Shown piece by piece: positions 6,455-54,790 of a stretch of DNA of 64,000 nt (the first letter of the stretch is position 1; each line of letters opens with the position of its first letter). Below the pieces are notes generated by a model. The model had not been told where the DNA came from. It was given only the letters and a program-made list of their open reading frames with translations, and did not search any database. Source of the DNA: an uncultured Erysipelotrichaceae bacterium (GTDB lineage: Bacteria; Bacillota_I; Bacilli_A; RFN20; CAG-826). A program made the position numbers and the translations under genes. The stretch covers positions 122,907 to 186,906 of the forward strand of contig CADCFC010000001.1 of the NCBI GenBank assembly GCA_902800645.1. Reading direction: 5' to 3'.

Positions 6455-6682
6455 CTAAAAATCATCTATATTTATATAATAAATTCGTTCGTTGAAATAG
6501 AGGAGTAGTGTAGAGACTACTATTAGAGAGTTAGGGATGGTGGAAGCCTAACAGCAAGTCTACATGAAGGTCGCTATGGAGAACATAAATTAATAAGTGC
6601 TAATGGAGAAATTCTATTAGAACTAAGGTGGTACCACGTTAAATGCGTCCTTAGAAATAAGGGCGTTTTATTTTTAGGAGGT
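6455..6682 (+). promoter_or_regulatory. T-box riboswitch leader of valS
   Basis: Conserved T-box sequence AACTAAGGTGGTACCACG at 6621-6638. It is followed by a terminator hairpin GCGTCCTTA-gaaa-TAAGGGCG plus a T-run (6645-6675), immediately upstream of the valS SD. AGAGA-type stem I elements appear earlier in the leader. Confidence 0.75.
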
Positions 6683-10394: not shown

Positions 10395-10500
10395 AACTAA
10401 CGTTGTCGCCTCACTAGCTACAACCGCATAGAAAAGGTTTATAAAACCTTATGGTTACCTTCATAGCGAGTCCTTAGTGAAATTTCTAAAGAAGGAGGGA
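10395..10500 (+). promoter_or_regulatory. Candidate ribosomal-protein L21 leader (5' UTR of rplU-prp-rpmA)
   Basis: A 148-nt untranslated region with the hairpin AAGGTTTATAAAACCTT lies before rplU. A conserved L21 leader is known at this position in Bacillus-like Firmicutes. Assigned by position and structure only. Confidence 0.3.
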
Positions 10501-11455: not shown

Positions 11456-11482
11456 GACCACATTAATTTGTGGTCTTTTTAT
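11456..11482 (+). terminator. Rho-independent terminator after rpmA
   Basis: GACCAC-attaattt-GTGGTC followed by TTTTT. Confidence 0.7.
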
Positions 11483-11507
11483 TATATTTTTATTATAATA
11501 ATCTTAT

Positions 11508-12785
11508 ATGTTTATCGATCGAGCAATTATTGAAGTTAGAAGTGGAAAAGGTGGCGATGGCGCTATCGCTTTTAGACGTGAAAAGTACGTTCCTAAAGGC
11601 GGACCAGCTGGAGGTAATGGAGGCCGTGGTGCTTCTGTTATTTTAAGAGCTAATAGCAAAATCAATACTTTATTCAATTTCCGTCACTCCAAATGCTTCA
11701 TCGGACAAGATGGAGAAAAAGGTGGGATTAAAAATCAATACGGGAGACACTCAGATGACATATATGTTGATGTTCCTGTCGGCACTGTTGTCTATGAAGA
11801 GAAAGACCACAAATTCTTGGGAGATTTATCGAAGGATGGTTTAACTCTTAAAGTCGCAAAAGGTGGAAGAGGTGGTAGAGGAAACACTTGCTTTAAAAGC
11901 TCTACCAATCGCGTTCCTAAAATTGCTGAAAATGGTGAACCGGGTGAACAAAAAAGATTAATTTTAGAATTAAAATTACTTGCCGATGTTGGCTTAGTTG
12001 GATTTCCAAGCGTTGGAAAATCCACTTTGTTATCAGTTGTGAGTTCTGCTCGTCCTGAAATCGCTGATTATCCATTTACTACAATCATCCCTAATCTAGG
12101 CGTTGTTACTTCAAAAGATGGAAGAAGTTTTGTAATGGCAGATCTTCCAGGAATTATTGAAGGTGCACATGTTGGTAAAGGACTAGGCTTACAATTTTTA
12201 AGACACATCGAAAGATGCCGTATCATCGTTCATGTAATTGATATGGGTGAAAGTGGTAGAGATCCATATGAGGATTTCAAAATTATCAATAAAGAACTTG
12301 AAGAATACGGTTTTGGATTAGTTAAACGACCTGTCATTTATGTTGCTAGCAAAATGGATGAAGAAGGTGCAAAAGAACGTTTAAAAGCTTTTGAAAAGAA
12401 GAGCAAAGTTAAATGTATTCCAATTTCATCTTTAACTGATGAAGGCATCGAAGAATTAGTGTATAAATGCGTCGATTTACTCGATGTAACTCCTATCTTC
12501 CCACTCGTTGATAGTGAAGAAGAAGTTCTCGAAAATAAAGTATATAAGCTCGATGAAGAAGAGAAAGAATTTGAAATCAAACATCCAAATCTTCATACTT
12601 GGGAGATTACCGGAGATAAAATTATTAAATTTTATCGTATGACAAATATTTCTACCGATGAAGGAATGATGAAGTTATTAACCAAATTAAGAAAACTTAA
12701 GGTTGATGACATTTTGGATGAAATGGGTGCTCAAGATGGCGATACAGTCATCTTGGATGATTTCTCATTTGATTATTACCGTTAA
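11508..12785 (+). CDS. obg: GTPase Obg/CgtA
   Basis: Gly-rich Obg fold (GGDGAIAFRREKYVPKGGPAGGNGGRG), a G domain, and a C-terminal OCT/TGS-like domain. Confidence 0.9.
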   Translation: MFIDRAIIEVRSGKGGDGAIAFRREKYVPKGGPAGGNGGRGASVILRANSKINTLFNFRHSKCFIGQDGEKGGIKNQYGRHSDDIYVDVPVGTVVYEEKDHKFLGDLSKDGLTLKVAKGGRGGRGNTCFKSSTNRVPKIAENGEPGEQKRLILELKLLADVGLVGFPSVGKSTLLSVVSSARPEIADYPFTTIIPNLGVVTSKDGRSFVMADLPGIIEGAHVGKGLGLQFLRHIERCRIIVHVIDMGESGRDPYEDFKIINKELEEYGFGLVKRPVIYVASKMDEEGAKERLKAFEKKSKVKCIPISSLTDEGIEELVYKCVDLLDVTPIFPLVDSEEEVLENKVYKLDEEEKEFEIKHPNLHTWEITGDKIIKFYRMTNISTDEGMMKLLTKLRKLKVDDILDEMGAQDGDTVILDDFSFDYYR

Positions 12786-19656: not shown

Positions 19657-19781
19657 ACTACAACATCTATAAATCGTATTAGTAAATTAAGCAAAATTAT
19701 AAATTAAATAATTTTGTTTTTTTATATTTCGTCGCTTTATTACTTTAATAAAGAAATAAAAAAATATACAATATAAACGAT

Positions 19782-21989
19782 ATGAGTAAAGAAGCATTAG
19801 TTAATGGTGGATATCCACTTCATACCTTCGAACAGCTCAAAGAAATATATCAGACATATATCACTGAGCCCAAGGATCGCCAGAGCATAGAAGATGCTTA
19901 TTCTTTTATTTTGGAAAAGCATAATGGTCAAATGCGCAAAAGCGGTGAACCATATTACCATCATCTTTTAGAAGTTGCTTATATTCTCGCTAATTTACAA
20001 GCTGGACCAGCAACAATTATTGGCGGTTTATTACACGATGTAGTGGAAGACACCGACGTCACAGTGGAAGATATCGAGAAAAGATGGGGTACAGACGTTG
20101 CTAAACTCGTCGATTCATTAACTAAAATTCAACGTTTGAAATTATCAAAAATTGAAAGTGAAGATTTTGAAGCCGAAGATCATCGAAAAATCTTTATCGG
20201 AATGGCGAAAGACATCCGTGTCATTATCATTAAACTCGCTGATAGATTACACAACATGAGAACATTAGGTTCTTTATCTCCGGAAAGACAAATCGCTCTT
20301 TCTAAAGAGACAAAAGAAGTCTTTGTTCCAATTGCTCATAGACTAGGTTTAGATAACATTAAATGTGAACTCGCTGACCTCTGTTTAAAATATTTAGAGC
20401 CAGAAAAATATAAAGAAATTACAATGCTTCTTTCTAAGAAAGAAAAAGCGACAACAAAGTCTCTTTCTATCTTCCAAAAGAAACTTGCTGATATTCTATT
20501 TGAACACAATATTCCTTTTGAAATCTTCTCAAGGGTGAAATCAATTTCTTCAATCTATGACAAGATGTATATCAAAGGACATTCATTCGATGATATCTAT
20601 GATATTCTTGCCTTAAGAATCATCACAGATACAGAAATGCGTTGTTATGAAATCCTTGGACTTATTCACCAAAGCTATAAGCCGGTCCCAATGAGATTTA
20701 AGGATTATATTGCTATGCCTAAACCAAACATGTATCAATCGCTTCACACAACAGTTATTTCAGGTGATGGCAACTTCTATGAAGTACAAATCAGAACCAA
20801 ATATATGGATGAAATCGCTGAAGCAGGTGTTGCTGCTCACTGGGCGTATAAAGAAAAGCGCGGATACGATCCTCAAGTCGAACAAAAAGAAATTGAAGAT
20901 AAATTACACTGGTTTAGAGACTTTGTCTCTATGAGTAATGAAAGCGACGGAAACGCTTCAGAGTACATGGAGACTCTTACGCACGATATTTTCGATGCGA
21001 ATGTTTATGTCTTTACTCCAAATGGCAAAGTCATTGAACTCCCTCAAGGTTCAACGCCAATCGACTTCGCCTATCGAATTCATACAAAAGTTGGTGATAG
21101 CGCAGTTGGAGCTTTAGTCAATGGCAGTATGGTTCCGCTTAATACAGTTTTAAAAACTGGTGATATGGTGGAGATTAAAACGAGCAAATCCTCGCCAGGT
21201 CCATCCGAAGGATGGTTAGACTTCGTTAAATCAAATTTAGCAAAATCACAAATCAAAAAATTCATCGCAAAGAAAAATGCCGAACTCATTAGAGATGAAA
21301 AGATTGCTAAAGGCAAACAATCTTGTCTAGATGCATTTAAAGATCGTGCGATTGAAGAAACCGAAATGATGGAGTTATTGACCCAGGACAAAGTCCTTAC
21401 TCAATTTGAATTTGAAACAGTTGATGACCTATTCATTGGCGTCGCTAATCGTAAACCAACTCCAGCAGCGATTATTGAGTTCTTAAAGATTAAGAAACCA
21501 CTTGTCCTTCCTACTGGAAAAGCAAAGATTAAAGGTAATGATTCTTGCCCAGTTTACTGTAGAGGTGCAGATCGCATTGCAATTAGTCTAGCAAGTTGTT
21601 GCACTCCAATTCCTGGAGATATGATTAAAGGCTATATCACTAGAGGAAAAGGAATTACTGTTCATAGAATTACTTGTCCAAATATTCTCAATTCTACCAG
21701 TAGACTTATCGATGTTTATTGGAAAGAAGACATTGAATATGCAACATATCCTGTTGATATTGCACTAGAAGCAAACGATCGACCAAACTTACTCGTTGAT
21801 ATTATGAATACAATGAGCAGTGCAAAAGTTACAGTGAGCTCAATTCACGCTCAACTGCAGCATCATAATCGTTCAATTACAATTGTGAATATCACAATTT
21901 ATGTAAGCGACTCAAAAAGATTAAGTGACATCTTCAACATTTTACAAAACGTTAAAGGCGTATACGATGTTAAACGTGTCATTCACTAG
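19782..21989 (+). CDS. relA: Bifunctional (p)ppGpp synthetase/hydrolase RelA/SpoT
   Basis: HD hydrolase domain (HLLEVAYILANL...LLHDVVEDT), synthetase domain, and TGS and ACT domains; 735 aa. Confidence 0.9.
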   Translation: MSKEALVNGGYPLHTFEQLKEIYQTYITEPKDRQSIEDAYSFILEKHNGQMRKSGEPYYHHLLEVAYILANLQAGPATIIGGLLHDVVEDTDVTVEDIEKRWGTDVAKLVDSLTKIQRLKLSKIESEDFEAEDHRKIFIGMAKDIRVIIIKLADRLHNMRTLGSLSPERQIALSKETKEVFVPIAHRLGLDNIKCELADLCLKYLEPEKYKEITMLLSKKEKATTKSLSIFQKKLADILFEHNIPFEIFSRVKSISSIYDKMYIKGHSFDDIYDILALRIITDTEMRCYEILGLIHQSYKPVPMRFKDYIAMPKPNMYQSLHTTVISGDGNFYEVQIRTKYMDEIAEAGVAAHWAYKEKRGYDPQVEQKEIEDKLHWFRDFVSMSNESDGNASEYMETLTHDIFDANVYVFTPNGKVIELPQGSTPIDFAYRIHTKVGDSAVGALVNGSMVPLNTVLKTGDMVEIKTSKSSPGPSEGWLDFVKSNLAKSQIKKFIAKKNAELIRDEKIAKGKQSCLDAFKDRAIEETEMMELLTQDKVLTQFEFETVDDLFIGVANRKPTPAAIIEFLKIKKPLVLPTGKAKIKGNDSCPVYCRGADRIAISLASCCTPIPGDMIKGYITRGKGITVHRITCPNILNSTSRLIDVYWKEDIEYATYPVDIALEANDRPNLLVDIMNTMSSAKVTVSSIHAQLQHHNRSITIVNITIYVSDSKRLSDIFNILQNVKGVYDVKRVIH

Positions 21990-25034: not shown

Positions 25035-25060
25035 GATGTTATATACTCTGTATATATAAA

Positions 25061-25089
25061 TACTAAATGAATACTAATTTTGTACTAAA
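25061..25089 (+). repeat. Phased heptamer array TACTAAA-N4-TACTAAT-N4-TACTAAA (11-bp period) upstream of tkt
   Basis: Repeat starts at 25061, 25072 and 25083. The third copy abuts the tkt SD GGAG. Confidence 0.5.
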
Positions 25090-30793: not shown

Positions 30794-30821
30794 AGTTAAC
30801 ATAATAAATAGATTCATTATA
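30794..30821 (-). other. Partial dif-like sequence (pseudo-dif): perfect XerD-arm TTATGTTAACT with a non-canonical XerC arm
   Basis: Minus-strand reading is TATAATGAATC-TATTTA-TTATGTTAACT. It shares a 15-nt identical core plus similar flank (about 19 of 20 nt) with the dif site at 36694-36721. Confidence 0.35.
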
Positions 30822-30831
30822 AAATAATGAT

Positions 30832-32019
30832 ATGGCAAAAGTTATTGTTCATATCGATTTAAATGCTTTCTTTGTTCGCGCCGAAGAACTTAAAGACCAC
30901 TCATTAGAAAATAAAGCTGTTGCTGTTGGTCATTTAGGAAGAGGCGGGATTGTTTCCACTTGCTCATATGAAGCGAGAAAATATGGCGTGAGAAGTGGAA
31001 TGCCAATGAATAAAGCGGTCAAACTTTGCCCATCTTTAATAATCATCCGTCCTGATTATCGTTTTTATGTTACTTTGTCACATAAATTCAGAAATTATAT
31101 TTCAACAATTACTCCAATAATTGAGATGGCCTCAATCGATGAACTATTCGCCGATTTCACCGATGTTGTAAAAAAACAAAGAAATGTCGAGGAGTATTTT
31201 AGAAATATCCAAAACACTTTATATGATTTAACAGGTTTAAAGTGTTCTATCGGTATTGGCCCAACAAAATTTTTAGCGAAGATGGCAAGCGACTATCAAA
31301 AGCCGATGGGCTTAACAATTATTAGAAGAAAAGATATCTCAAAAATCTTATATCCTCTTCCTTTGGAAGATATGTTTGGAATTGGCAAGAAAACTTGTCC
31401 TCGTCTTAAATATATCGGAATAAAAACTATCGGTGATTTAGCAAACGCTTTAAATAATAACGATCCAAAAGTTTATGACCTTCTTGGTAAATATTCTTAT
31501 GACTTGAAAGAATGGCTTAACGGCAAAGGAAGCGACAAGGTTATTACTGAATATGACGATCCTAAATCAATAGGTAATTCCACAACATTAAAAGAAGACA
31601 CTGATAACTATGAAACTATTTCTAATACTTTTGAAATAATTGCAGAAGAAGTGAGTGAACGCGCAAAAAAAGAAAATATGATCGGTAACACCATTCAAAT
31701 AATGGTTAAAGATCTCAATTACCGCGCTCACAATAAATCAATAACATTTGTTAACCACACAAATCACGCTAAAGAGATTTATGATTATGCAATTAAGCTA
31801 TACGAAAAGAATTTCCTCGGTTTACCAATAAGAGCCCTTGGAATCACACTTCAAAACTTAATCAATATCAAAGATATGAAAGTGCAGATGACTTTTTTTG
31901 ATTATCAAATGCACGAAGAAGAAAACAAAACTAAACTATTAATTAATGATCTGAATAGAAAAATTAAAGGTAAACCTTTAAAAAGAGCTAGCGAGGTAAA
32001 GAGCAATGGAAATAAGTGA
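30832..32019 (+). CDS. dinB: DNA polymerase IV (Y-family, DinB)
   Basis: N-terminus IVHIDLNAFFVRAEE and the IMS core ...SYEARKYGVRSGMPM, with a little-finger domain. Confidence 0.85.
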   Translation: MAKVIVHIDLNAFFVRAEELKDHSLENKAVAVGHLGRGGIVSTCSYEARKYGVRSGMPMNKAVKLCPSLIIIRPDYRFYVTLSHKFRNYISTITPIIEMASIDELFADFTDVVKKQRNVEEYFRNIQNTLYDLTGLKCSIGIGPTKFLAKMASDYQKPMGLTIIRRKDISKILYPLPLEDMFGIGKKTCPRLKYIGIKTIGDLANALNNNDPKVYDLLGKYSYDLKEWLNGKGSDKVITEYDDPKSIGNSTTLKEDTDNYETISNTFEIIAEEVSERAKKENMIGNTIQIMVKDLNYRAHNKSITFVNHTNHAKEIYDYAIKLYEKNFLGLPIRALGITLQNLINIKDMKVQMTFFDYQMHEEENKTKLLINDLNRKIKGKPLKRASEVKSNGNK

Positions 32020-35896: not shown

Positions 35897-35944
35897 AATT
35901 TGTTTTCCTCGTTGCTATTCTACAAGAATAAATATTACAATATA

Positions 35945-35960
35945 TGTGATTTAAATCACG
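35945..35960. promoter_or_regulatory. CRP/FNR-family binding site TGTGA-tttaaa-TCACG
   Basis: Near-perfect TGTGA-N6-TCACA palindrome in the 67-bp divergent region. On the transporter-operon side it is centred about 41-42 bp upstream of the inferred start point (-10 TAGAAT). On the other side it ends 3 nt before the ATG of the Crp-like gene. Confidence 0.5.
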
Positions 35961-35963
35961 AAT

Positions 35964-36548
35964 ATGAACAAAATTATTAATTTTATAACCAATAATAATG
36001 ATATTAAATATGAAGAGTTTACTGCCGCTAAGAATCAGACATTATTCTTTGAAGGCGATAAATGTGAAAACATAGGCATTGTAAGAAAAGGAAAAGTTAG
36101 TATCATTTCATATTTTTCTGACGGACAAGAAGTCATATATAACACATTAGAAAAAGGTGGCATGTTCGGTAACAACCTCATTTTTTCATCCAGTCCATTT
36201 TATAGAGGAGATGTTGTTGCGATTGAAGAAACCGAAATCATCTACATTAAAAAAGATGAACTATTAAAAGCGTTAACAAGTAGCAAAGAATTATTAGAGC
36301 TTTACCTAAAGGAACAATCCGATTTTTCTAAAAAGCTCAATTTCAAGATAAAATTATTATCAATTCAAAATGCAGAAGACAGAATAATTTATTATCTTAC
36401 ATTTCATAAAAGAGAAATCGAATATAAATCGATATTAAAACTATCAAAAGAATTATATCTTGCACGAGAAACGCTAAGCAGAACAATCTATAAAATGGAA
36501 CGCAATGGTATAATAAAAATACAAAACAAAAAGATCACGCTATTGTAG
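35964..36548 (+). CDS. Crp/Fnr-family transcriptional regulator (cNMP-binding domain plus C-terminal HTH)
   Basis: 194 aa with a beta-roll cNMP-binding fold (GMFGNNLIF...) and a C-terminal HTH (RETLSRTIYKMERNGII). Confidence 0.8.
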   Translation: MNKIINFITNNNDIKYEEFTAAKNQTLFFEGDKCENIGIVRKGKVSIISYFSDGQEVIYNTLEKGGMFGNNLIFSSSPFYRGDVVAIEETEIIYIKKDELLKALTSSKELLELYLKEQSDFSKKLNFKIKLLSIQNAEDRIIYYLTFHKREIEYKSILKLSKELYLARETLSRTIYKMERNGIIKIQNKKITLL

Positions 36549-36559
36549 TGGAAATACAA

Positions 36560-36577
36560 ATTAGTAGATTTTTAGTA
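36560..36577 (+). repeat. Two phased copies ATTAGTA-N4-TTTAGTA of the recurring heptamer
   Basis: Copies start at 36560 and 36571, an 11-bp period. Same motif as the other arrays, in reverse orientation. Confidence 0.35.
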
Positions 36578-36693
36578 GGTGGATAAATTAACAAATTGTG
36601 GATAAAATTTAGCAATTAGATAATTATTCATCTATTTTTTATTATTTTAAAAGCAATCACTTAGATATCTAAATCGCTGTTTTTATCATATTA

Positions 36694-36721
36694 AGTTAAC
36701 ATAATAAACATTATGCGAAGT
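36694..36721 (-). other. dif: Chromosome dimer resolution site dif (XerC/XerD recombination site)
   Basis: Minus strand reads ACTTCGCATAA-TGTTTA-TTATGTTAACT. That is 22 of 28 identical to E. coli dif GGTGCGCATAA-TGTATA-TTATGTTAAAT. The XerD arm is 10 of 11 versus B. subtilis TTATGTAAACT, and the XerC arm starts ACTTC as in B. subtilis. It sits in a convergent intergenic region 2.5 kb from the global strand switch and 3.8 kb from xerD. Confidence 0.7.
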
Positions 36722-39836: not shown

Positions 39837-39946
39837 TGACGAACCTAAATATGATTTTAACTGAAAAAGTCATTTTATAATAGACTTTTATATATAAAGT
39901 GCGAATTTTGTTTTCTATATAAGAAAAAAGTAGTCAATAAGTCTCA

Positions 39947-39975
39947 AACTAATTAACTACTAATTTTCTACTAAT
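39947..39975 (+). repeat. Phased heptamer array AACTAAT-N4-TACTAAT-N4-TACTAAT
   Basis: Starts at 39947, 39958 and 39969. Lies between the parC end and the yqeG operon promoter. Confidence 0.5.
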
Positions 39976-40003
39976 TTTTAATGATATATAACAAAGTTAT
40001 ATC

Positions 40004-42625
40004 TTAGTCTAAATCATCAAATATTGATATCTGTTCAAAGCTACCTGCTTCTTTTTCACTCTTCTCTTCTTCCTGAGTGTCTTCTGGTTCAACTGTTTCA
40101 GCAGGAGCAGTTTCACTTTGAGGAACTTCTTTAACCACTATTGGGTGGGAAATATTGGATTTACCAATATTTGTGATTGTTGTGTCAAAGACGAACGCCA
40201 CACTTTGTTTTAAAGTCATTCCCTCAATATTTTTCTTCGCGTATTGAGCTTCTGTATTTCTCAAGTCATCAACTTTAAGATTTTTAATGGTTCGATCATT
40301 CATATAAAGGTTGAGAATGAGTTCTTCGTCTTTAGACACTCTCATAGCATATATAATGCTATGTGGGTCACCCTTAAATGATTGAAGGATATTTTGGACT
40401 TTGCCTAATCTATTGGTTCTAAAGAACTTAGAAGAATCCGTTACGCGCATATGTCCTTTATTTGTAATTAATAATAATTTAGTTCTCTCATCCTTTTCTA
40501 AAGCGATAAGGGCGGCGTCTTGATTACTTCCTAATGAAGAAATCGATTTGACACCTCCAGCTTTACTTCCAAGGATTGTTAATTCATTCTCGTTGAATAG
40601 AGAGCAATTACCATTATTAGTTATAACTAATAAATCGCTATCTCCAGTCAAGAGCTCAACGCCAACAATCTCATCATTGGTGAGGAGTTTCATATATCTT
40701 GCAGGGCGTGATCGTCTTTGCATTTCAAGAGAAGAAACAGCCATACGTTTGATTTGACCAAATTTAGTTAAAATCGCTAAATATAAGTCGTTTCTCATCT
40801 CACTAAGAGACATAACTTTAATAATCTTTTCGCCACTAGCTAATGTCGTAAACTCATTAATATGAGTTCCTTCATCTTTCCACTTATTATCAGTGAGATT
40901 ATGAACGCCTATTACCGCGTAGTTACCCTGATTTGTAAAACAAATCAGGTAATCGGTGGTAAATGCTTTACCGATTCCCACTACCATATCACCGTCTTTT
41001 AAGCCTGGTAGCTCATTATTATAGCTACTATAACTTCTAATCGAACTACGTTTTAAATATCCATCATAAGTAACCGCGACCATTACTTCTTCTTTAGCGA
41101 TCAATTCACGCTTATCAATTTCCTTGGTCTCACCTTTTTCGATGATTTGGGTTCTTCTATCATCACCATATTTCTCGCTAATCGCTTTTAAATCACGAAC
41201 TAATACGCGATTAAGTTTATTTGGATCTTCAAGAATACCCATAAGGGTATTAATTGTGATTTCTAATTGTGATTTCTCTTTTTCTAAAATAAGTTCATCA
41301 GTGTGACTTAATTTATATAATGGCATGGTCACAATCGCTTCTGCTTGTTCGTTAGTTAAAGAATAACGTTTAATCAAATTCTCTTTGGAATCTGCTTTAT
41401 CTTTACTTTTGCGAATGATTTCAACAACTTCATTAATGTTTAAAGACGCTAAAATCAAGCCTTCAACGATGTGTAAACGATCATTGCATTTCTTTAAGTC
41501 GAATTTGCTTTTTCTAGTGATTACATCAACTTGATGAGCGATATAAGCATCAATATAGTCGAGTAAATTAATGGTTTTTGGTCTGCCATCAACAATTGCA
41601 ACCATATTAGCGGTATAGCCACATACAAGATTGGTTTTCTTCATTAAATATTGAAGAATGAGATCAACTTTTGCGTTCTTTTTAACATCGACAACAATAC
41701 GAATTCCTTTGTAATCGGATTCATCTCTTACTTCAATAATGCCATCAATGGCTTTAGAATGCCTAATTTTGTCTATTTCATAGACAAGTTGAATTTTCAC
41801 CACTTTATAAGGTATTTCTGTAATGATGATTTGATTAATTTCTTTCTTTTCAACGATTTCCGTTTTACTAGCAACTTCAATTCTGCCTCTACCTGTTTGA
41901 TAGATACTATCAAGTCCACTAGAGCGGTAAATATAGCCTCCACCTGGGAAATCAGGACCTTGTACAAAATTCATCAAATCTTCAACTGTGGCGGTTTTAT
42001 GACCGATGCGATATATAGTCGCATCAATGATTTCTCTTAGGTTATGTGGAGGAATCTCAGTTGCTAAAGCAACTGCAATACCTTCAGTACCATTCACTAA
42101 TAAGTTAGGAAAACGAGAAGGAAGTACAACTGGTTCTTGCTCTGTATCATCAAAGTTGAGTTGCATATCCACTGTTGATTTCTCAATATCACAAACAAGT
42201 TCATTAGATAATTCAGAAAGTCTACTTTCTGTATAACGATAAGCAGCAGGAGAGTCTCCATCAATTGAACCATTATTACCTTGGAAATCAATTAAAGGAT
42301 ATCTAACTTTCCAATCTTGACTCATTCTAGCGAGGGCTTCATAAATTGATGTATCGCCATGTGGGTGATAAGTTCCCATGACCGCTCCAACGGTATGAGC
42401 ACACTTCTTTGTTGGCTTATTAAAAGTGTTACCACTTTTATACATAGAAAAAATGATTCTTCTTTGAACCGGTTTTAATCCATCTCTAACATCTGGAATA
42501 GCACGATCTTGAATAACATATTTAGCATATGTAGCGTATCGATCGCTCATTACATCTTCAAGAGGTTCAGTCGAAATATTTTCTTCAATAATTTCTTCTT
42601 CAATGACTTCTTTTTTCTTTGCCAT
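40004..42625 (-). CDS. parC: DNA topoisomerase IV subunit A (type IIA topoisomerase A subunit; ParC favoured over GyrA)
   Basis: Catalytic Tyr context AAYRYTE. No canonical GyrA box (QRRGGKG) in the C-terminal domain. Adjacent downstream of the B-subunit gene and next to plsY, as parE-parC is in Bacillus. Acidic C-terminal tail. Confidence 0.75.
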   Translation of the reverse strand: MAKKKEVIEEEIIEENISTEPLEDVMSDRYATYAKYVIQDRAIPDVRDGLKPVQRRIIFSMYKSGNTFNKPTKKCAHTVGAVMGTYHPHGDTSIYEALARMSQDWKVRYPLIDFQGNNGSIDGDSPAAYRYTESRLSELSNELVCDIEKSTVDMQLNFDDTEQEPVVLPSRFPNLLVNGTEGIAVALATEIPPHNLREIIDATIYRIGHKTATVEDLMNFVQGPDFPGGGYIYRSSGLDSIYQTGRGRIEVASKTEIVEKKEINQIIITEIPYKVVKIQLVYEIDKIRHSKAIDGIIEVRDESDYKGIRIVVDVKKNAKVDLILQYLMKKTNLVCGYTANMVAIVDGRPKTINLLDYIDAYIAHQVDVITRKSKFDLKKCNDRLHIVEGLILASLNINEVVEIIRKSKDKADSKENLIKRYSLTNEQAEAIVTMPLYKLSHTDELILEKEKSQLEITINTLMGILEDPNKLNRVLVRDLKAISEKYGDDRRTQIIEKGETKEIDKRELIAKEEVMVAVTYDGYLKRSSIRSYSSYNNELPGLKDGDMVVGIGKAFTTDYLICFTNQGNYAVIGVHNLTDNKWKDEGTHINEFTTLASGEKIIKVMSLSEMRNDLYLAILTKFGQIKRMAVSSLEMQRRSRPARYMKLLTNDEIVGVELLTGDSDLLVITNNGNCSLFNENELTILGSKAGGVKSISSLGSNQDAALIALEKDERTKLLLITNKGHMRVTDSSKFFRTNRLGKVQNILQSFKGDPHSIIYAMRVSKDEELILNLYMNDRTIKNLKVDDLRNTEAQYAKKNIEGMTLKQSVAFVFDTTITNIGKSNISHPIVVKEVPQSETAPAETVEPEDTQEEEKSEKEAGSFEQISIFDDLD

Positions 42626-45417: not shown

Positions 45418-45446
45418 ATTAGTAAAAAATTAGTAGATTATTAGTA
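45418..45446 (+). repeat. Phased heptamer array ATTAGTA-N4-ATTAGTA-N4-ATTAGTA
   Basis: Starts at 45418, 45429 and 45440. Lies in a convergent (non-promoter) intergenic region. Confidence 0.5.
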
Positions 45447-45600
45447 ATTAAAACTATATGTTAATAAGGTTTTCCACATCGCGTAGAAATGCCTTATTTT
45501 AATTTATATTATATATAAATCAGTTTTCGTTGACTTTTATCTTATTTTTAGCCAATCTAAGAAACTTTTCATCCATTCCACTACATTTATTAGATCAAGG

Positions 45601-47321: not shown

Positions 47322-47417
47322 AGATAGTTTCTCCTTAAATTGCTATGTAATAGTAGCACAACAAATAAAATAATAAAAGTATATTTTTATTAGTTATAAA
47401 TGTAAAATAATCATGCT

Positions 47418-48467
47418 ATGAAAAGAAATGAAACTAGACAAGTAAAAGTCGGCAATATTGTTATTGGTGGACAAAATAAAGTTGTCATCCAATCAATGTG
47501 CAATATCAAGACAGAGAATTATCTCGCTGTAAGCGAACAAATTAATGAATGCGCTAAGTTAGGCGCACAATTAATGCGTGTTTCAGTAATGGATGAAAAA
47601 GACGCTTTAGCGATTAAGGAAATCAAAAAGAGAATTTCTATTCCACTCGTGGTTGATATTCATTTTGATTATCGATTAGCTCTCTTGGCGATGGAAAACG
47701 GTGTAGATAAGATTAGAATCAACCCAGGAAATATTGGTGACATCGAAAACATCAAAAAAGTCGTTTCCATGGCTAAAGAAAAACATATTCCAATTAGAAT
47801 TGGGGTTAATTCTGGTTCTTTAGATAAAAACATCCACGATTATTCAACTCAATATACAGCAGAAAAGTTAGTAGCGTCCGCTAAAAGACATGTCGATATT
47901 TTAGAATCATTGGATTTCCATGATATCGTCATTTCCCTAAAGGGAAGTAATGTACTAGAAACCGTCGCAGCGTATCGATTAGCAAGCGAAACATTCCCTT
48001 ATCCACTTCATTTAGGCATTACGGAAGCTGGTTTTAAAGATATCGCTGTTATTAGAAGCTCTGCTGGACTAGCGCCTTTATTACTTGATGGTATTGGAGA
48101 TACAATCCGTATTTCGATATCCGGAAGCGTCAAAGACGAAATCATCACTTGTAAAAGACTTCTCCATGATTGTGGACTTTACGATAACTATCCAACCCTT
48201 GTTGCCTGCCCAACATGTGGACGTACGCAAGTAGATGTTGAATCTTTAGCGAGAAAAGTCATGGAATATCTAGAAACTGTTAATAAACCAATTCACGTCG
48301 CTGTTATGGGATGTGTAGTAAATGGACCTGGCGAAGCCAAAAACGCTGATATCGGTATAGCTGGCGGCCATCACGAATACGTCATTTTCAAAAAAGATAA
48401 AGTAATTAAAAAAGTTCCAGAAGCCGAAGCTTTTGAAACTTTAGTAGAAGAGATAAAGAAACTTTAG
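47418..48467 (+). CDS. ispG: 4-hydroxy-3-methylbut-2-enyl diphosphate synthase IspG (GcpE)
   Basis: TIM-barrel N-domain and a C-terminal 4Fe-4S domain with CPTCGR...GCVVNGPGE. Confidence 0.9.
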   Translation: MKRNETRQVKVGNIVIGGQNKVVIQSMCNIKTENYLAVSEQINECAKLGAQLMRVSVMDEKDALAIKEIKKRISIPLVVDIHFDYRLALLAMENGVDKIRINPGNIGDIENIKKVVSMAKEKHIPIRIGVNSGSLDKNIHDYSTQYTAEKLVASAKRHVDILESLDFHDIVISLKGSNVLETVAAYRLASETFPYPLHLGITEAGFKDIAVIRSSAGLAPLLLDGIGDTIRISISGSVKDEIITCKRLLHDCGLYDNYPTLVACPTCGRTQVDVESLARKVMEYLETVNKPIHVAVMGCVVNGPGEAKNADIGIAGGHHEYVIFKKDKVIKKVPEAEAFETLVEEIKKL

Positions 48468-49378
48468 TTTCTCCAGTCAATGAATTTACCGCTCCTTAGC
48501 ATTTCAATTTCTTGCTTATAAGGAGCTTTTTCATTTACATAAGGCGTTTCAAGAATCATTGGTATTCCAATGAGTTTAGGATGATGTACAACATGATATA
48601 AAGTGTCAAAACCTAAATAGCCATATCCAATGTTTTCATGCCTGTCTTTATGAGCGCCTATTGGATTCTTACTGTCATTAACATGAACGACCAATAAACG
48701 ATCAAGTCCAATGATTTTATCGAATTTTTCGATAACACCATCAAAATCGTTTTTCACATCATAACCAGCATCGGAAATATGACATGTATCGAGGCAAACT
48801 CCTAAACGGTCTTTATGTTCACACTTATCGATAATTGCTTTAACTTGTTCAAAAGTAATTCCAATTTCATGACCCTTGCCCGCCATTGTTTCAATAGCGA
48901 TTTTTACATCAGTGCCATCAACTTTAAAAACTAAATCAAGGGCTTTGGCTAAAGCCAATATTCCAGCCTCGCTCCCCATACCAACATGGCTTCCTGGATG
49001 AAGAACCATGATTTTAACACCAAATCCTGCGGTTCTTCTTAGCTCATTTACAATTGTGTTGATTGACATTTCATATAGGTCTTCTCTAGAGAAATTAGCA
49101 GCATTAATAATGTAAGGAGCGTGAACAATTAATTTTGATTCATCAATTCCTGCTTCCTTAATAAGTTTTCTACCTTCCTGAATTTTTAATTCAGATAATG
49201 GTTTTCTAATTGAATTCTGAGGAGCTCCTGTATAAAACATAAATGTATTTGAATTATATGAAAGTGCTTCTTTAACACTCCCTAAATAGAAATCAGGTCC
49301 GCTTAAACCAACATGACTTCCAAGATAAATAGTTTCTTTAGTTTCCATATTTTTATAACCTGTCAAATATGTTAACAT
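48464..49378 (-). CDS. nfo: Endonuclease IV
   Basis: TIM-barrel Zn-dependent AP endonuclease (LGSHVG..., HAPYIINAAN, metal-ligand His/Asp/Glu). The start is more likely the internal ATG at 49345 (METKETIYLGSHV). Confidence 0.85.
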   Translation of the reverse strand: MLTYLTGYKNMETKETIYLGSHVGLSGPDFYLGSVKEALSYNSNTFMFYTGAPQNSIRKPLSELKIQEGRKLIKEAGIDESKLIVHAPYIINAANFSREDLYEMSINTIVNELRRTAGFGVKIMVLHPGSHVGMGSEAGILALAKALDLVFKVDGTDVKIAIETMAGKGHEIGITFEQVKAIIDKCEHKDRLGVCLDTCHISDAGYDVKNDFDGVIEKFDKIIGLDRLLVVHVNDSKNPIGAHKDRHENIGYGYLGFDTLYHVVHHPKLIGIPMILETPYVNEKAPYKQEIEMLRSGKFIDWRN

Positions 49379-49384
49379 ATTTTC

Positions 49385-50245
49385 ATGAAAACTGCATTAA
49401 TCAAACCTCAAGGTTTTTGTTCTGGTGTCACCCGTGCTGTTGCTCTTGCAAAGCAAGCAAAGCTCGAAAATAAAGATAAGAACATCTACATTTTAGGAAT
49501 GTTAGCTCATAATCAAATCCTCATTGATGATCTTACAAAGGATGGCTTTATTACCTTAATAGGTAATGAGGAAGAGGAAATCAATAAGCTTAAAAAAGGT
49601 GACATCTTAATATTCACAGCGCATGGCCATGATGAAAAATTGGATCGATTAGCAAAAGCAAAAGGTTTAATTACATATGATGCAACCTGCCCGAAAGTAA
49701 AAAGCAATCTCGATAAAATCAAAAAAGAAATCAATGATAATCATCAAGTCATTTATATTGGACAATCAGGCCATAAAGAAGCAAGTGCTGCTTTGTCGAT
49801 TTCTAAAAATGTATCATTATATGATACACAACTACTAATTAACTACCAATTAATTACTGATGAGTCGCCTTTTGTTTTAAATCAAACAACACTCAATTTT
49901 TATGAGCTGTCAAAGTATCATAAAGACATAAAAGATCATATTCCTGATGCAAGAATTGCCAACGAAATATGTAACGCTACTAGATTAAGGCAAGAAGCTA
50001 TGCTTACTATCGATAAAGATACAGATTTAATCGTTATTGTCGGTCACCATAAATCGAGCAACTCAAACAAATTGTTTGACATTGCAAAAGCAAATTATAA
50101 AGATGCTCTTGTTGTAATGATTAATAATCTGGATGAACTAAAGAAGATAGACATTAGAGGCAAGAAAAAAGCCGCCATAGGATCAGGGGCTTCAACTCCA
50201 CAATGTATTGTGGACGAAATATATAACTACTTACTTAAAATATAA
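49385..50245 (+). CDS. ispH: 4-hydroxy-3-methylbut-2-enyl diphosphate reductase IspH (LytB)
   Basis: KPQGFCSGV, ATCPKV and the three conserved Cys; 286 aa. Confidence 0.9.
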   Translation: MKTALIKPQGFCSGVTRAVALAKQAKLENKDKNIYILGMLAHNQILIDDLTKDGFITLIGNEEEEINKLKKGDILIFTAHGHDEKLDRLAKAKGLITYDATCPKVKSNLDKIKKEINDNHQVIYIGQSGHKEASAALSISKNVSLYDTQLLINYQLITDESPFVLNQTTLNFYELSKYHKDIKDHIPDARIANEICNATRLRQEAMLTIDKDTDLIVIVGHHKSSNSNKLFDIAKANYKDALVVMINNLDELKKIDIRGKKKAAIGSGASTPQCIVDEIYNYLLKI

Positions 50246-52952: not shown

Positions 52953-54743
52953 CTATTTTTTCTTCGCCAATTCTCTTTGGCGGAATTCTTTAATAATTCT
53001 TGCCTGTTCAAGTTCACTTTTTCCTTCTAGAGAACTTGCAAGGATATCTTCGTCAGTAATTCTTGTCTTCTCACCATTAATGGTGTCTAACAAATTCTCA
53101 AGCAATTGTTCAGAGCACTGACTTGGATGAGTCTCCACCATTAGTGAGGTCAAATCATTAATGATGTCATCTCGATTCTCTTCTTCATTCTGCATGAGCA
53201 AGAGCACTCCATTAACATCCATCTCATCATGATTTTCGGCATATTCAATCATGAAGTTTGCAATTTGACGGTAGTTATCATCATAGAAACCACCCACCTT
53301 TTGTTCATAAAAGCTCACAGCACGCTTGTTTTGACTCATTTGGTATAAAAGTTCGCGCTCAGCAGTTACGAGCTTCTGAAGGGCTTCTCTTTCAGGATGG
53401 AAATTTTGAAAAACAGCTTTAGTTGTTTCTTCTCCTTGACTGACAGTCACACGTGCACGCTTCAATAAATCACGAATGCTTTCAGCGTCGAAGCCAGTAA
53501 TCTTCTGCAACTTTCTCAAATAATTATCAAGTTCTAGTTGCGAATCAATTCTTAGAAGGATTGGTAAGAATTCTTTAATTAATGTTTTCTTTTCTTCATT
53601 GGTCTTAAGAGGATTGCTTCTTAAATAATAATTTAAGGCGAAATCGGTTTGACTAACGAGCTTATTCAAATACTCCTCTAAGGCAGCTTTTCCGTCTTCA
53701 TTTAAGATTTCATCTGGATCGCGGTCGCTTCCTTGATTATCCACAACTCTAAAGTTGATTCCACTTTTTGCTAGAACTTTAGCGATTTTCATCATCGCAC
53801 TTTGTCCAGGCAGGTCGCCGTCAAGACATAGTCTTAGCTCAACGTTCAAGCTTCTTAAAATCTGAATGTGCTCGCTTGTTAAGGCAGTGCCCATTATTGC
53901 CACAGCAGCATCAATTCCGATTTTACCTAGTGCATAGACGTCCATGAATCCTTCACATATGTAGATAAACTCTTTTAATTTACATGCATCTTTAGCGATA
54001 TGAATGTTGTATAAATTGTTAGTCTTATGAAACAAATATGTTTCAGGTGTGTTCATATATTTAGGCGAATTATCGTCCACTAGTCGTCTAGCGCTAAATC
54101 CAATAACATTGCCATCGATATCACAAATTGGGAAAGTCACTCTTCCTTCATTCATGTCTCGATAGTTTCCAGGAGAAAGCATCTTAGCAATTCCTGTATC
54201 TTCGATAGTTTTAATTGAGTGCCCTTTTTTAAGAAGGAAATCAATTGTAGCCTTTCCATCTTCAGGAGCATATCCAAGCTTATACTTATTTCTTAAGGTA
54301 TTATCTAGCTTCCTTGATTCTAGATAATCAAGGCCTTTTTTACCTTCTTGTGTATTAAGCGCAAACTGATAATAAAGATTTAAATCGTAGAGGCACTTAA
54401 GGATTTGATCCCTTCTCTCATCAACTTTAACAGGGCGTCCAACTCTTTCTAGTCCAGCTGGATGATAGTCGACAATATCTGCAACTTTTCTGAGTGCTTC
54501 TCCAAAGGAGATATGCTCATATTTTTGAACGAAGGTGATGGCGTTACCACCAGTACCACAAACAAAGCATTTGAACATTTGTTTTTCTGGAGACACGACT
54601 AAAGAAGGATTTGTATCGTCATGGAATGGACAAACACCTTTATAGTTCTTGCCAGCTTTAATAAGAGGCATGTAACTTTCCACAACTTTAACAATATCAG
54701 CGTGTTTTAAGATGTCTTCAGCTAATGTATTGTTTCCGCTCAT
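52953..54743 (-). CDS. dnaG: DNA primase
   Basis: Zinc-binding [10 protein letters not shown]...C..C, TOPRIM (EGFMD), and a C-terminal helicase-interaction domain. Confidence 0.9.
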
Positions 54744-54761
54744 ATAATAAAATTATAAATA

Positions 54762-54790
54762 TACTAATTTAATACTAATTTGATACTAAT
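54762..54790 (+). repeat. Phased heptamer array TACTAAT-N4-TACTAAT-N4-TACTAAT between the glyQS stop and the dnaG start
   Basis: Exact copies start at 54762, 54773 and 54784. The intergenic space is only 42 bp, and dnaG has no recognisable SD. Confidence 0.55.

Follow-up and report, generated by a model that had tools for sequence, protein, structure and literature searches.

Several described systems offer points of comparison for a recurring array of ATTAGTA heptamers (TACTAAT on the opposite strand) that we have analysed in a 64,000-nucleotide stretch of DNA, hereafter the window, from an uncultured Erysipelotrichaceae bacterium. The matS/MatP system, which organises the Ter macrodomain of enterobacteria and vibrios, employs a few short sites around dif, in both intergenic and coding DNA, whose position counts for more than the neighbouring gene; each matS site is a 13-bp palindrome (GTGACRNYGTCAC) for one dimer, and about 23 sites are spread over about 800 kb. 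Ter sites at the B. subtilis terminus (consensus KMACTAANWNNWCTATGTACYAAATNTTC) are bipartite, with A and B parts for two RTP dimers, and form two opposed polar groups. Pho boxes and related OmpR/PhoB sites consist of 7-bp direct repeats with 4-bp AT-rich spacers and an 11-bp period, and occur as pairs at a fixed distance from the -10 element. MraZ boxes are three phased direct repeats for an oligomeric protein (MraZ), whereas iteron and centromere arrays (pSC101-type origins, R1 parC and pMV158 bind) place helically phased direct repeats, of 17-22 bp in iterons, beside an inverted repeat that overlaps a promoter. Finally, Rok, a nucleoid-associated winged-helix protein of B. subtilis, prefers the pentamers AACTA and TACTA (PMC6212790), binds broadly in AT-rich foreign DNA and clusters on the chromosome; reports of its family are confined to the B. 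subtilis group.

We propose, with a probability of roughly 0.4, that the ATTAGTA arrays are candidate DNA docking sites of a sequence-specific protein that marks or organises the terminus region. The element is real, conserved and unannotated, and its kind, phased direct-repeat binding sites in a terminus-centred cluster, is known, whereas the system to which it belongs appears undescribed; no description of it was found in the literature on the heptamer and on Firmicutes terminus repeats. We know of no terminus-specific organising system in Firmicutes besides RTP/Ter in the Bacillus group, and of no MatP homologue in that phylum.

In the window, a pattern of three heptamers with at most three mismatches matches five sites (25061+, 39947+, 45418-, 49833+ and 54762+), far above the 0.01 expected by chance from dinucleotide-preserving shuffles. 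A pattern of two heptamers with at most one mismatch yields 10 matches against 0.11 expected, all of them within six loci (the five triples and 36560-36577). The initial annotation had described arrays at five loci and assigned four of them to tkt, yqeG, plsY/yneF and dif. Re-reading and pattern scanning bear out every coordinate and gene assignment, and the comparisons it had proposed, with shuffled sequence and with orthologous spacers of related genomes, both came out in favour of the element. All five loci are real, but a sixth array within ispH had been missed, as had a decayed copy at dinB. The full set is as follows:

25061-25089, plus strand: aspS/tkt array, TACTAAA TGAA TACTAAT TTTG TACTAAA
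30791-30819, plus strand: decayed dinB array, ATTAGTT AACA TAATAAA TAGA TTCATTA, 5ʹ of dinB
36560-36577, minus strand: dif-adjacent array of two heptamers, ATTAGTA GATT TTTAGTA on the plus strand
39947-39975, plus strand: parC/yqeG array, AACTAAT/TACTAAT/TACTAAT, one mismatch
45418-45446, minus strand: plsY array, a perfect triple, ATTAGTA three times on the plus strand
49833-49861, plus strand: ispH-internal array, TACTAAT TAAC TACCAAT TAAT TACTGAT, two mismatches
54762-54790, plus strand: glyS/dnaG array, TACTAAT TTAA TACTAAT TTGA TACTAAT; ATTAGTA on the gene strand

With the decayed dinB copy included, successive arrays are separated by 5.7, 5.8, 3.4, 5.5, 4.4 and 4.9 kb. The glyS|dnaG spacer measures 42 bp, and the glyS stop codon TAG falls within heptamer 1 on the gene strand. 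Similarly, the plsY array starts 3 nt past the plsY stop in the convergent plsY/yneF spacer, the parC|yqeG array reads ATTAGTA on the gene (minus) strand 28 nt past the parC stop, and the dif-adjacent array lies 11 nt past the stop of a Crp-like gene. The aspS|tkt array is directly 5ʹ of the tkt Shine-Dalgarno sequence. The ispH-internal array reads ATTAGTA on the minus strand, in the direction of nfo, and encodes a variable loop of the protein without causing an insertion.

The window is the replication terminus, because the GC skew switches, the genes converge and a dif site lies at 36694-36721. The skew is positive up to about 34-36 kb and negative beyond, and genes occupy the plus strand on the left side and the minus strand on the right. 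The GC content is about 35%, and the genome is compact, with only about 3.2 kb of intergenic DNA in 64 kb.

Across 32 arrays from the window and its relatives, each ATTAGTA column is identical in 28-32 of the 32 (most in 30-32), whereas the 4-bp spacers are AT-rich and otherwise mixed. Heptamers 2 and 3 usually have an A immediately 5ʹ, and (A)ATTAGTA with a free 4-bp spacer and an 11-bp period is the conserved unit; arrays comprise 2-5 units, usually three. Variant heptamers include AACTAAT, TACTAAA, AACTATT, TACCAAT and TACTGAT, most of which keep a WACTA core. In 228 kb of DNA from the lineage, pairs of exact heptamers occur 53 times at 11 bp, 25 times at 22 bp and at no other distance between 7 and 30 bp; this count is partly shaped by how the loci were retrieved, and additional arrays in the same loci fit the rule. 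An alignment of the glyS|dnaG site from nine species likewise shows constant heptamers and free spacers. Judged from these columns, selection acts on the heptamers and their phase and leaves the spacers free.

More than 20 related metagenomic species have arrays at matching gene junctions, the sites being glyS|dnaG, the plsY 3ʹ end, parC|yqeG, xseB|dinB, the interior of ispH, aspS|tkt, the flank of dif and the region upstream of ftsA. We scanned one genome per species (GTDB) for the exact pattern, and among the matches listed there are 14 Bacilli-type stretches with variable AT-rich spacers, from metagenome-assembled genomes (MAGs) labelled Bacilli, Erysipelotrichaceae, Bacillales, Mollicutes, Firmicutes or Staphylococcaceae. 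Twelve of these 14 are syntenic with the window, and each Bacilli-type species contributes one stretch, versus many per Bacteroidales MAG. Among the same listed matches, the sites (related loci carry L numbers) are glyS|dnaG in L103, L105, L106 and L165, the plsY 3ʹ end in L092, L118, L181 and L182, aspS|tkt in L148, xseB|dinB in L170 and the deoB 3ʹ end in L099 and L112. Second arrays within these loci lie inside ispH (L103), at parC|yqeG (L182), upstream of dinB with three mismatches (L099), and at the spo0A 3ʹ end, 5ʹ of a MATE transporter gene (L112). A metagenome scan, whose pattern was built to leave out the Bacteroidales spacer type, gave eight window-syntenic matches and one match upstream of ftsA (L278, at the same site as in the Bacilli-labelled L110).

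Three 20-kb loci obtained through PlsY homologues of 45-55% identity provide a sample that is independent of the motif. Arrays with 1-4 mismatches are present in every one of them at three sites (glyS|dnaG, the plsY 3ʹ end and the flank of dif), and most of the loci also have one at parC|yqeG or inside ispH. When all loci are considered, the plsY-site array is present in L092, L118, L181, L182, L265, L312, L313 and L314, and the parC|yqeG array in L182, L258, L281 and L300 and, in degenerate form, in L312 and L314. L103 and L312 keep the ispH-internal array, of which L106 and L314 have weaker copies; xseB|dinB or xseB|dxs carries an intact array in L170, L187, L211, L245 and L281 and, with three mismatches, in L099; the aspS|tkt array is conserved in L148, and the ftsA-upstream array is conserved in L110, L278, L315, L316 and L317. 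On this comparative evidence the arrays are old and under purifying selection, since they have been kept at orthologous junctions while the flanking proteins diverged to 35-90% identity.

The orientation of the arrays relative to genes, which the initial annotation described as variable, is in fact regular: read as ATTAGTA, the array points in the direction in which the immediately preceding gene is transcribed in nine of the ten site classes. The sole inverted class is aspS|tkt, which retains the internal layout of array, four nucleotides and palindrome described below. The first heptamer often overlaps or supplies the upstream stop codon (TAG for glyS and plsY, TAA for xseB), and the distance from this stop mostly ranges from overlap to 28 nt, rising to 67-75 nt at deoB and to 280 nt in L281. 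Distances to the next start codon run from overlap (yqeG in L281; dinB in L099 and L170) through 1 nt (dxs in L187), 1-5 nt (dinB) and 18-19 nt (dnaG) to 97-167 nt (ftsA and yqeG). Arrays at three sites (the 3ʹ ends of plsY and deoB, and the flank of dif) have no gene downstream.

The dif-adjacent array belongs to a larger module that is shared, in the same order and direction, by the window, L112, L099, L258, L312, L313 and L314. A gene stop is followed by two or three ATTAGTA heptamers, by 0-31 bp, by a DnaA box (TGTGGAWAA) in the same direction, by about 85-120 bp of unconserved DNA, and then by dif, with its XerD-type arm (as judged from the dif sites of E. coli and B. subtilis) closest to the array. 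In the window, a DnaA box occupies the third phased slot of the array. The relevant features are as follows:

36578-36586, minus strand: DnaA box GGTGGATAA (plus-strand reading), in the ATTAGTA direction, in the third phased slot
36597-36605, minus strand: DnaA box TGTGGATAA (plus-strand reading), in the ATTAGTA direction
36694-36721, strand unassigned: dif, AGTTAACATAA-TAAACA-TTATGCGAAGT
45470-45478, plus strand: DnaA-box-like 9-mer TTTTCCACA, 24 bp past the plsY array

The gene that flanks the module varies between species (crp-like, deoB or PemK-like), and therefore the module is tied to dif and not to a gene. L281 has the module without a recognisable DnaA box, and L258 has three further DnaA boxes clustered across dif on the opposite side. 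DnaA boxes at a terminus are unexpected. Boxes with 0-1 mismatch also occur in the orthologous plsY spacers of L118 and L182, so that the plsY-site array is accompanied by a DnaA box in three species. We considered and rejected DnaA boxes as a general partner of the arrays: a box lies no farther than 80 bp from six of 34 arrays, versus about three expected, and the link is confined to the dif-adjacent and plsY sites. DnaA boxes are not enriched in the window as a whole (23 versus 17.5 expected).

The gene whose end meets the dif-adjacent array encodes, in several relatives, an unusually long protein of 185-220 aa with no visible antitoxin partner. This gene is PemK/MazF-like according to Pfam in L313 (1258-1815) and L314 (1124-1681), and by position, size and reading of the sequence by eye in L281 (6854-7411) and L258 (4838-5500).

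Each genome carries about 8-10 sites, heavily clustered within about 20 kb of dif, although some lie elsewhere. The enrichment is strong, with 12 of the 14 arrays of the genome scan, among the matches listed, and eight versus one in the metagenome scan, and there are outliers at about 69 kb and about 31 kb. When the window was extended by 9.4 kb to the left and 9.7 kb to the right, no further array with three or fewer mismatches appeared.

A second motif accompanies many arrays: a 6-3-6 palindrome, TATAAC-N3-GTTATA, located 4 bp past the array in the ATTAGTA direction, with the variants TATAAT-N3-ATTATA, TATATAC-N3-GTATATA and GTATCAT-N3-ATGATAC. Of the 17 perfect TATAWN-N3-NWTATA palindromes in 290 kb of DNA from the lineage, 11 have an array no more than 12 bp away. 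Those in the window, together with one terminator-like structure, are as follows:

25040-25056, strand unassigned: tkt palindrome, 7-3-7, TATATAC-TCT-GTATATA, 4 bp from the array, with the same layout as at dnaG
39923-39968, minus strand: intrinsic-terminator-like hairpin and U-run, whose 5ʹ arm is heptamer 2 of the parC|yqeG array with its spacer
39987-40001, strand unassigned: parC/yqeG palindrome, a perfect TATAAC-AAA-GTTATA, between the parC stop and the array
49810-49828, strand unassigned: ispH palindrome, 8-3-8, TGTATCAT-TAT-ATGATACA, 4 bp from the ispH-internal array
54743-54757, minus strand: dnaG palindrome, 6-3-6, TATAAT-TTT-ATTATA, 4 bp from the array

The dnaG palindrome holds a -10-like TATAAT and ends in the dnaG ATG; the gene has no Shine-Dalgarno sequence, and its start is thus probably leaderless. 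Most relatives have TATAAC-AAA-GTTATA here, and the clade of the window has changed on both arms, from C:G to T:A, such that the arms co-vary between clades as C...G, T...A and A...T. At tkt, L148 has TATATAC-TTT-GTATATA. The minus strand of the ispH palindrome contains the -10-like hexamers TATCAT and TATAAT, and the same copy carries what reads as a sigma-70-like promoter toward nfo (TTGGTA-17 bp-TATCAT). Separately, the start codons of nfo (minus strand) and ispH (plus strand) are divergent and only 6 bp apart (49376-49387), and the promoter of each must therefore sit within the other gene; ispH is a single plus-strand gene inside a long string of minus-strand genes, and its end overlaps nif3.

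In several genes of the window, the start is preceded by no Shine-Dalgarno sequence but by a -10-like hexamer 8-9 nt 5ʹ of the ATG (TATAAT-N8-ATG), suggestive of frequent leaderless mRNAs in this organism. The starts with this layout are:

11482-11510, 19757-19784, 30815-30834, 35939-35966, 47393-47420 and 54741-54760: leaderless-type starts, TATAAT-N8-ATG layout

Overlap with a terminator was found at one of five folded window sites, parC|yqeG, where the minus strand of 39880-40010 folds at -25.2 kcal/mol (z = -2.76). In L110 and L317, the arrays at the ftsA site have a similar ACTACT and T-run downstream (by eye, not folded). Neither dnaG (z = +1.9) nor tkt (z = -0.5) yields a significant RNA fold. 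The deoB arrays of L112 and L099 are placed 3ʹ of the terminator, and the plsY array is placed between the plsY stop and the plsY terminator.

The anatomy, conservation, positional clustering, orientation and dif module of the arrays are shown by the sequences, and from them we infer a protein-bound DNA element. In the proposed mechanism, 2-5 protomers, usually three, would bind head-to-tail on one face of the helix. Their sites, about 3-6 kb apart at transcription-unit boundaries and concentrated about 20 kb either side of dif, would allow the protein to mark or organise the terminus, by analogy with matS/MatP in E. coli or with parS clusters near origins. Transcription would probably also be affected where array and palindrome overlap a promoter (dnaG, nfo and tkt) or a terminator (yqeG and ftsA). 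Binding to DNA, as the initial annotation had also argued, is favoured by the strict helical-repeat period and near-invariant heptamers, by copies past terminators, by the inverted tkt copy, by the copy embedded in ispH, and by the association with palindromes, DnaA boxes and dif. A role that depends on position is favoured because most sites lie in about 3% of the chromosome, one module is anchored to dif, three site classes have no downstream gene, and the relation to start codons is loose. An extended version of this proposal, which we consider rather unlikely in its entirety, is a matS/MatP-like terminus system of Firmicutes in which the protein coats the dif-centred cluster, cooperates with DnaA and XerCD/dif, and couples the completion of replication to division and to the expression of DNA-metabolism genes. 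Such coupling might act through the ftsA-ftsZ, dnaG and dinB sites, possibly by titration when the terminus cluster is duplicated. For the sister termini of B. subtilis, protein bridging has been proposed as one possible holding mechanism (PMC7515245).

The arrays resemble matS in being few, short, placed around dif in intergenic and coding DNA, and, as it seems, governed by position more than by the neighbouring gene. They differ in being three direct 11-bp units and not a palindrome, in their transcription-linked orientation and in a span of roughly 40-100 kb. The likeness to Ter lies in the terminus location and the TACTAA-like core, whereas the arrays show neither A/B asymmetry nor the opposed polarity of a fork trap, their polarity being mixed, and RTP/Ter was therefore set aside. 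A search for RTP homologues (PF02334; query checked against PDB) returned proteins of at least 45% identity, the named ones being Bacillaceae-type and none linkable to the lineage, at a sensitivity that leaves remote homologues invisible. The pentamers preferred by Rok match the core of TACTAAT, AACTAAT, TACTAAA and AACTATT, and Rok likewise clusters on the chromosome; its sites lack phased triplets. By this analogy, a Rok-like minor-groove winged helix is an attractive lead for the binder. Avoidance of TACTA/AACTA of the kind expected for a Rok-like protein was considered and dropped, since TACTA is depleted (0.38) but other TA-rich pentamers are as well, and the effect is unspecific.

Pho boxes share the 7-bp direct repeat, the 4-bp AT-rich spacer and the 11-bp period, and at dnaG the array may stand in for the -35 element. 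However, the arrays have 2-5 units with another consensus and abut stop codons, and a fixed position around -35 holds only at dnaG; elsewhere, the distance to the next start ranges from overlap to 167 nt, or a downstream gene is lacking. The arrays have no regulator gene nearby. There is thus no specific pointer to the OmpR/PhoB- or WalR-type response regulator put forward in the initial annotation, three units also being odd for dimers, nor to the iterons that it named as another possibility, as no rep gene is present. Like iteron and centromere arrays, the heptamers form helically phased direct repeats beside a promoter-overlapping inverted repeat, with a DnaA box beside one copy, as at iteron origins; the units, though, are of 11 bp, the copies are multiple, chromosomal and located at housekeeping junctions, and neither rep nor par genes are adjacent. 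MraZ boxes are matched in the three phased direct repeats, and one array lies in the same dcw cluster. The canonical boxes of this lineage (AAGTGGNAGA three times, AAGTGG three times) have a 10-11-bp period and stand directly 5ʹ of the mraZ start in L315 (8013-8042), L317 (8019-8048), L316 and L110. The arrays differ from them in sequence, period and their many locations, and MraZ was rejected. LexA (Cheo) boxes, CGAAC-N4-GTTCG, number nine in the window against 13 expected, with none in the array-bearing spacers. Repeats of UAG or GAG with a 5-7-nt period, as for HutP or TRAP, were not found, the period being 11 and some copies lying past terminators. At its gathering threshold, Rfam 15 places no family over any array.

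We rank terminus marking first and an ordinary regulon second, and the two are not mutually exclusive. The regulon, which seems to us possible if somewhat doubtful, would consist of operators for one tandem-repeat transcription factor (a PhoB/OmpR-like winged helix or an oligomeric repressor) controlling dnaG-sigA, dinB-xerD, nfo, the yqeG operon, tkt and ftsA-ftsZ, with clustering around dif reflecting where these genes are located. It would account for the 7+4 layout and 11-bp period, well established for PhoB-type boxes, for the -10-like hexamer that often follows 4 bp after the array, and for the shared orientation to all downstream genes but tkt. Several observations that support it also weigh against a terminus mark. 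At dnaG, the array spans about -17 to -45 of the TATAAT-N8-ATG promoter in nine species, an operator-like place, and the palindrome overlaps -10 and +1. Operator-like placement is also seen at dinB and dxs, whose start codons follow 1-5 nt after the array. Many neighbouring genes act in DNA metabolism or cell division, as would fit a regulon, and the window has no LexA box in its array-bearing spacers; the strong orientation bias is not predicted by a purely architectural role. The ftsA-upstream array, the sole array in its 21-kb locus, lies about 69 kb from dif (on a 114-kb contig common to L313 and L315), and a degenerate array with four mismatches, ATTGGTT GAAA ATTAGTA GATT TTTAGTT, directly follows the lepA stop in the usual orientation (L306 5978-6006, window coordinate about 67.7 kb, past the right end) about 31 kb from dif. 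Furthermore, the gene order around dif is conserved throughout the lineage, such that attachment to the region and to the genes are not fully separable, and the distribution was judged from the window, retrieved loci and contigs. No candidate binder gene was found among the genes next to the arrays: a 318-aa open reading frame (ORF) encodes a lipoprotein, and the Crp-like gene has a palindromic operator of its own. On the other hand, a regulon does not explain the three conserved classes without a downstream gene, the start-codon distances that run from overlap to 167 nt while stop-codon distances are mostly small, or the module whose position is fixed to dif. There is no room for a promoter where arrays lie 1-5 nt from the ATG (dinB, dxs) or overlap the yqeG start (L281), confinement to about 3% of the chromosome is rare for regulons, and three units are odd for dimeric response regulators.

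The remaining explanations have to contend with the same facts. An RNA element, with AUUAGUA repeats serving as a processing site, a translation insulator or a HutP/TRAP-like antiterminator site, would suit the sense orientation in nine of ten classes, abutting or containing the upstream stop. With the 11-nt spacing, UAG (or UAA when the opposite strand is read) also falls in each of the three frames, arrays that touch the next ATG are necessarily within mRNA, and the parC|yqeG heptamers form a terminator 5ʹ arm in the manner of HutP, with similar ftsA sites by eye. We nevertheless judge it improbable, given that deoB copies lie past terminators, the inverted tkt copy is conserved with its palindrome, dnaG and tkt show no stable or conserved structure, no Rfam family matches, and the partner features (palindromes, DnaA box and dif) are DNA elements; moreover, 11 is the helical repeat of DNA, whereas known RNA-binding rings are established to read periods of 3-7 nt. 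Ter-like contrahelicase sites that form a fork trap around dif are very improbable, even with sites concentrated around the terminus, a heptamer similar to the core (TACTAA) of the Ter consensus in B. subtilis, and no termination system being known outside the Bacillus and enterobacterial groups. On the right arm, yqeG, ispH and dnaG face one way and plsY the other, and on the left arm tkt opposes dinB and deoB; with such mixed orientation on each arm, either polarity would stall normal forks before dif. Three direct 11-bp units are also not a bipartite 30-bp A+B site, and the RTP homologues recovered, in a search of limited sensitivity, are Bacillaceae-type only. Chance, simple tandem repetition or a small mobile repeat (of the MITE or REP kind) might come to mind in an AT-rich genome, particularly because unrelated 11-bp tandem repeats with TACTAAT occur in many other organisms. 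Yet the shuffle statistics oppose it, the spacers differ inside each array, which excludes tandem duplication, and the copies, about 8-10 per genome, have no terminal repeats or target duplications. Conservation at orthologous positions in more than 20 species with diverged flanks has already refuted this reading, to which we give practically no weight.

The arrays offer a sharp, deeply conserved cis-element around dif, a fixed module of array, DnaA box and dif, and a 33-bp probe with which the binding protein can be sought. Even as ordinary operators, they would define an undescribed regulon, one that in a large lineage of uncultured gut and rumen bacteria joins primase, Pol IV and endonuclease IV with FtsA/FtsZ.

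Similar repeats were encountered in other organisms. Rumen and gut MAGs of Paludibacteraceae/Bacteroidales contain true 11-bp tandem repeats (TACTAATCACA, or ending in -CACC or -AACC) in 3-7 copies, for example in L074 (83-126), L089 (145-206) and L179 (4537-4598), within the range L067-L185. A genome has several of them, placed in larger intergenic regions between recurring flanks (...CGTTAATCACA[repeat]CACATACACTTAACCCGA). Heptamer and period are those of the Bacilli arrays, whereas the spacer is conserved and no obvious orientation rule applies; these repeats are a different element. Viral contigs gave 62 pattern matches. A recurrent locus of about 42% GC, unrelated to the window lineage, carries GTACTAAT four times with an 11-bp period (...TTGTACTAATCGACTTGTACTAATAGTGTACTAATAATGTACTAATGTACC...) in L194, L224, L225, L229, L243, L262, L267, L268, L270 and L283; its flanks are identical across many samples, and two of the contigs are labelled human gut metagenome.

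The genes of the window run, to the left of dif, in the order aspS, tkt, nusB, xseA, xseB, dxs, dinB, xerD and deoB, followed by an ABC transporter gene and the crp-like gene. To the right of dif lie nadD-yqeK, yhbY, yqeH, yqeG, parC, parE, plsY, yneF and efp, and beyond efp a gene of the metallo-beta-lactamase fold, ispG, nfo, ispH, nif3, trmK, sigA, dnaG, glyS, recO and era. Exact copies of window proteins were found only in rumen and gut metagenome assemblies, one of which is a 323-kb contig. Stop codon usage is normal (TAA 38, TAG 15 and TGA 4), which rules out stop-codon reassignment. A CRP-type palindrome (TGTGATTTAAATCACG) at 35945-35960, directly 5ʹ of the Crp/Fnr-like gene (35964-36548), is probably the autoregulatory operator of that gene. 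In the Erysipelotrichaceae-labelled MAG that contains L112, a Spo0A C-terminal DNA-binding domain (recognised by eye) is encoded at 7729-7998, right before an array, and the lineage thus appears to retain Spo0A. An IS605 OrfB/TnpB (Cas12f-like) gene lies between a SpoU-family methylase gene and pheS in L317 (2656-3816). The only Rfam matches in the window are a T-box leader (6483-6655) 5ʹ of a gene for an 864-aa class I aminoacyl-tRNA synthetase and an L21 leader (10412-10484) 5ʹ of rplU.

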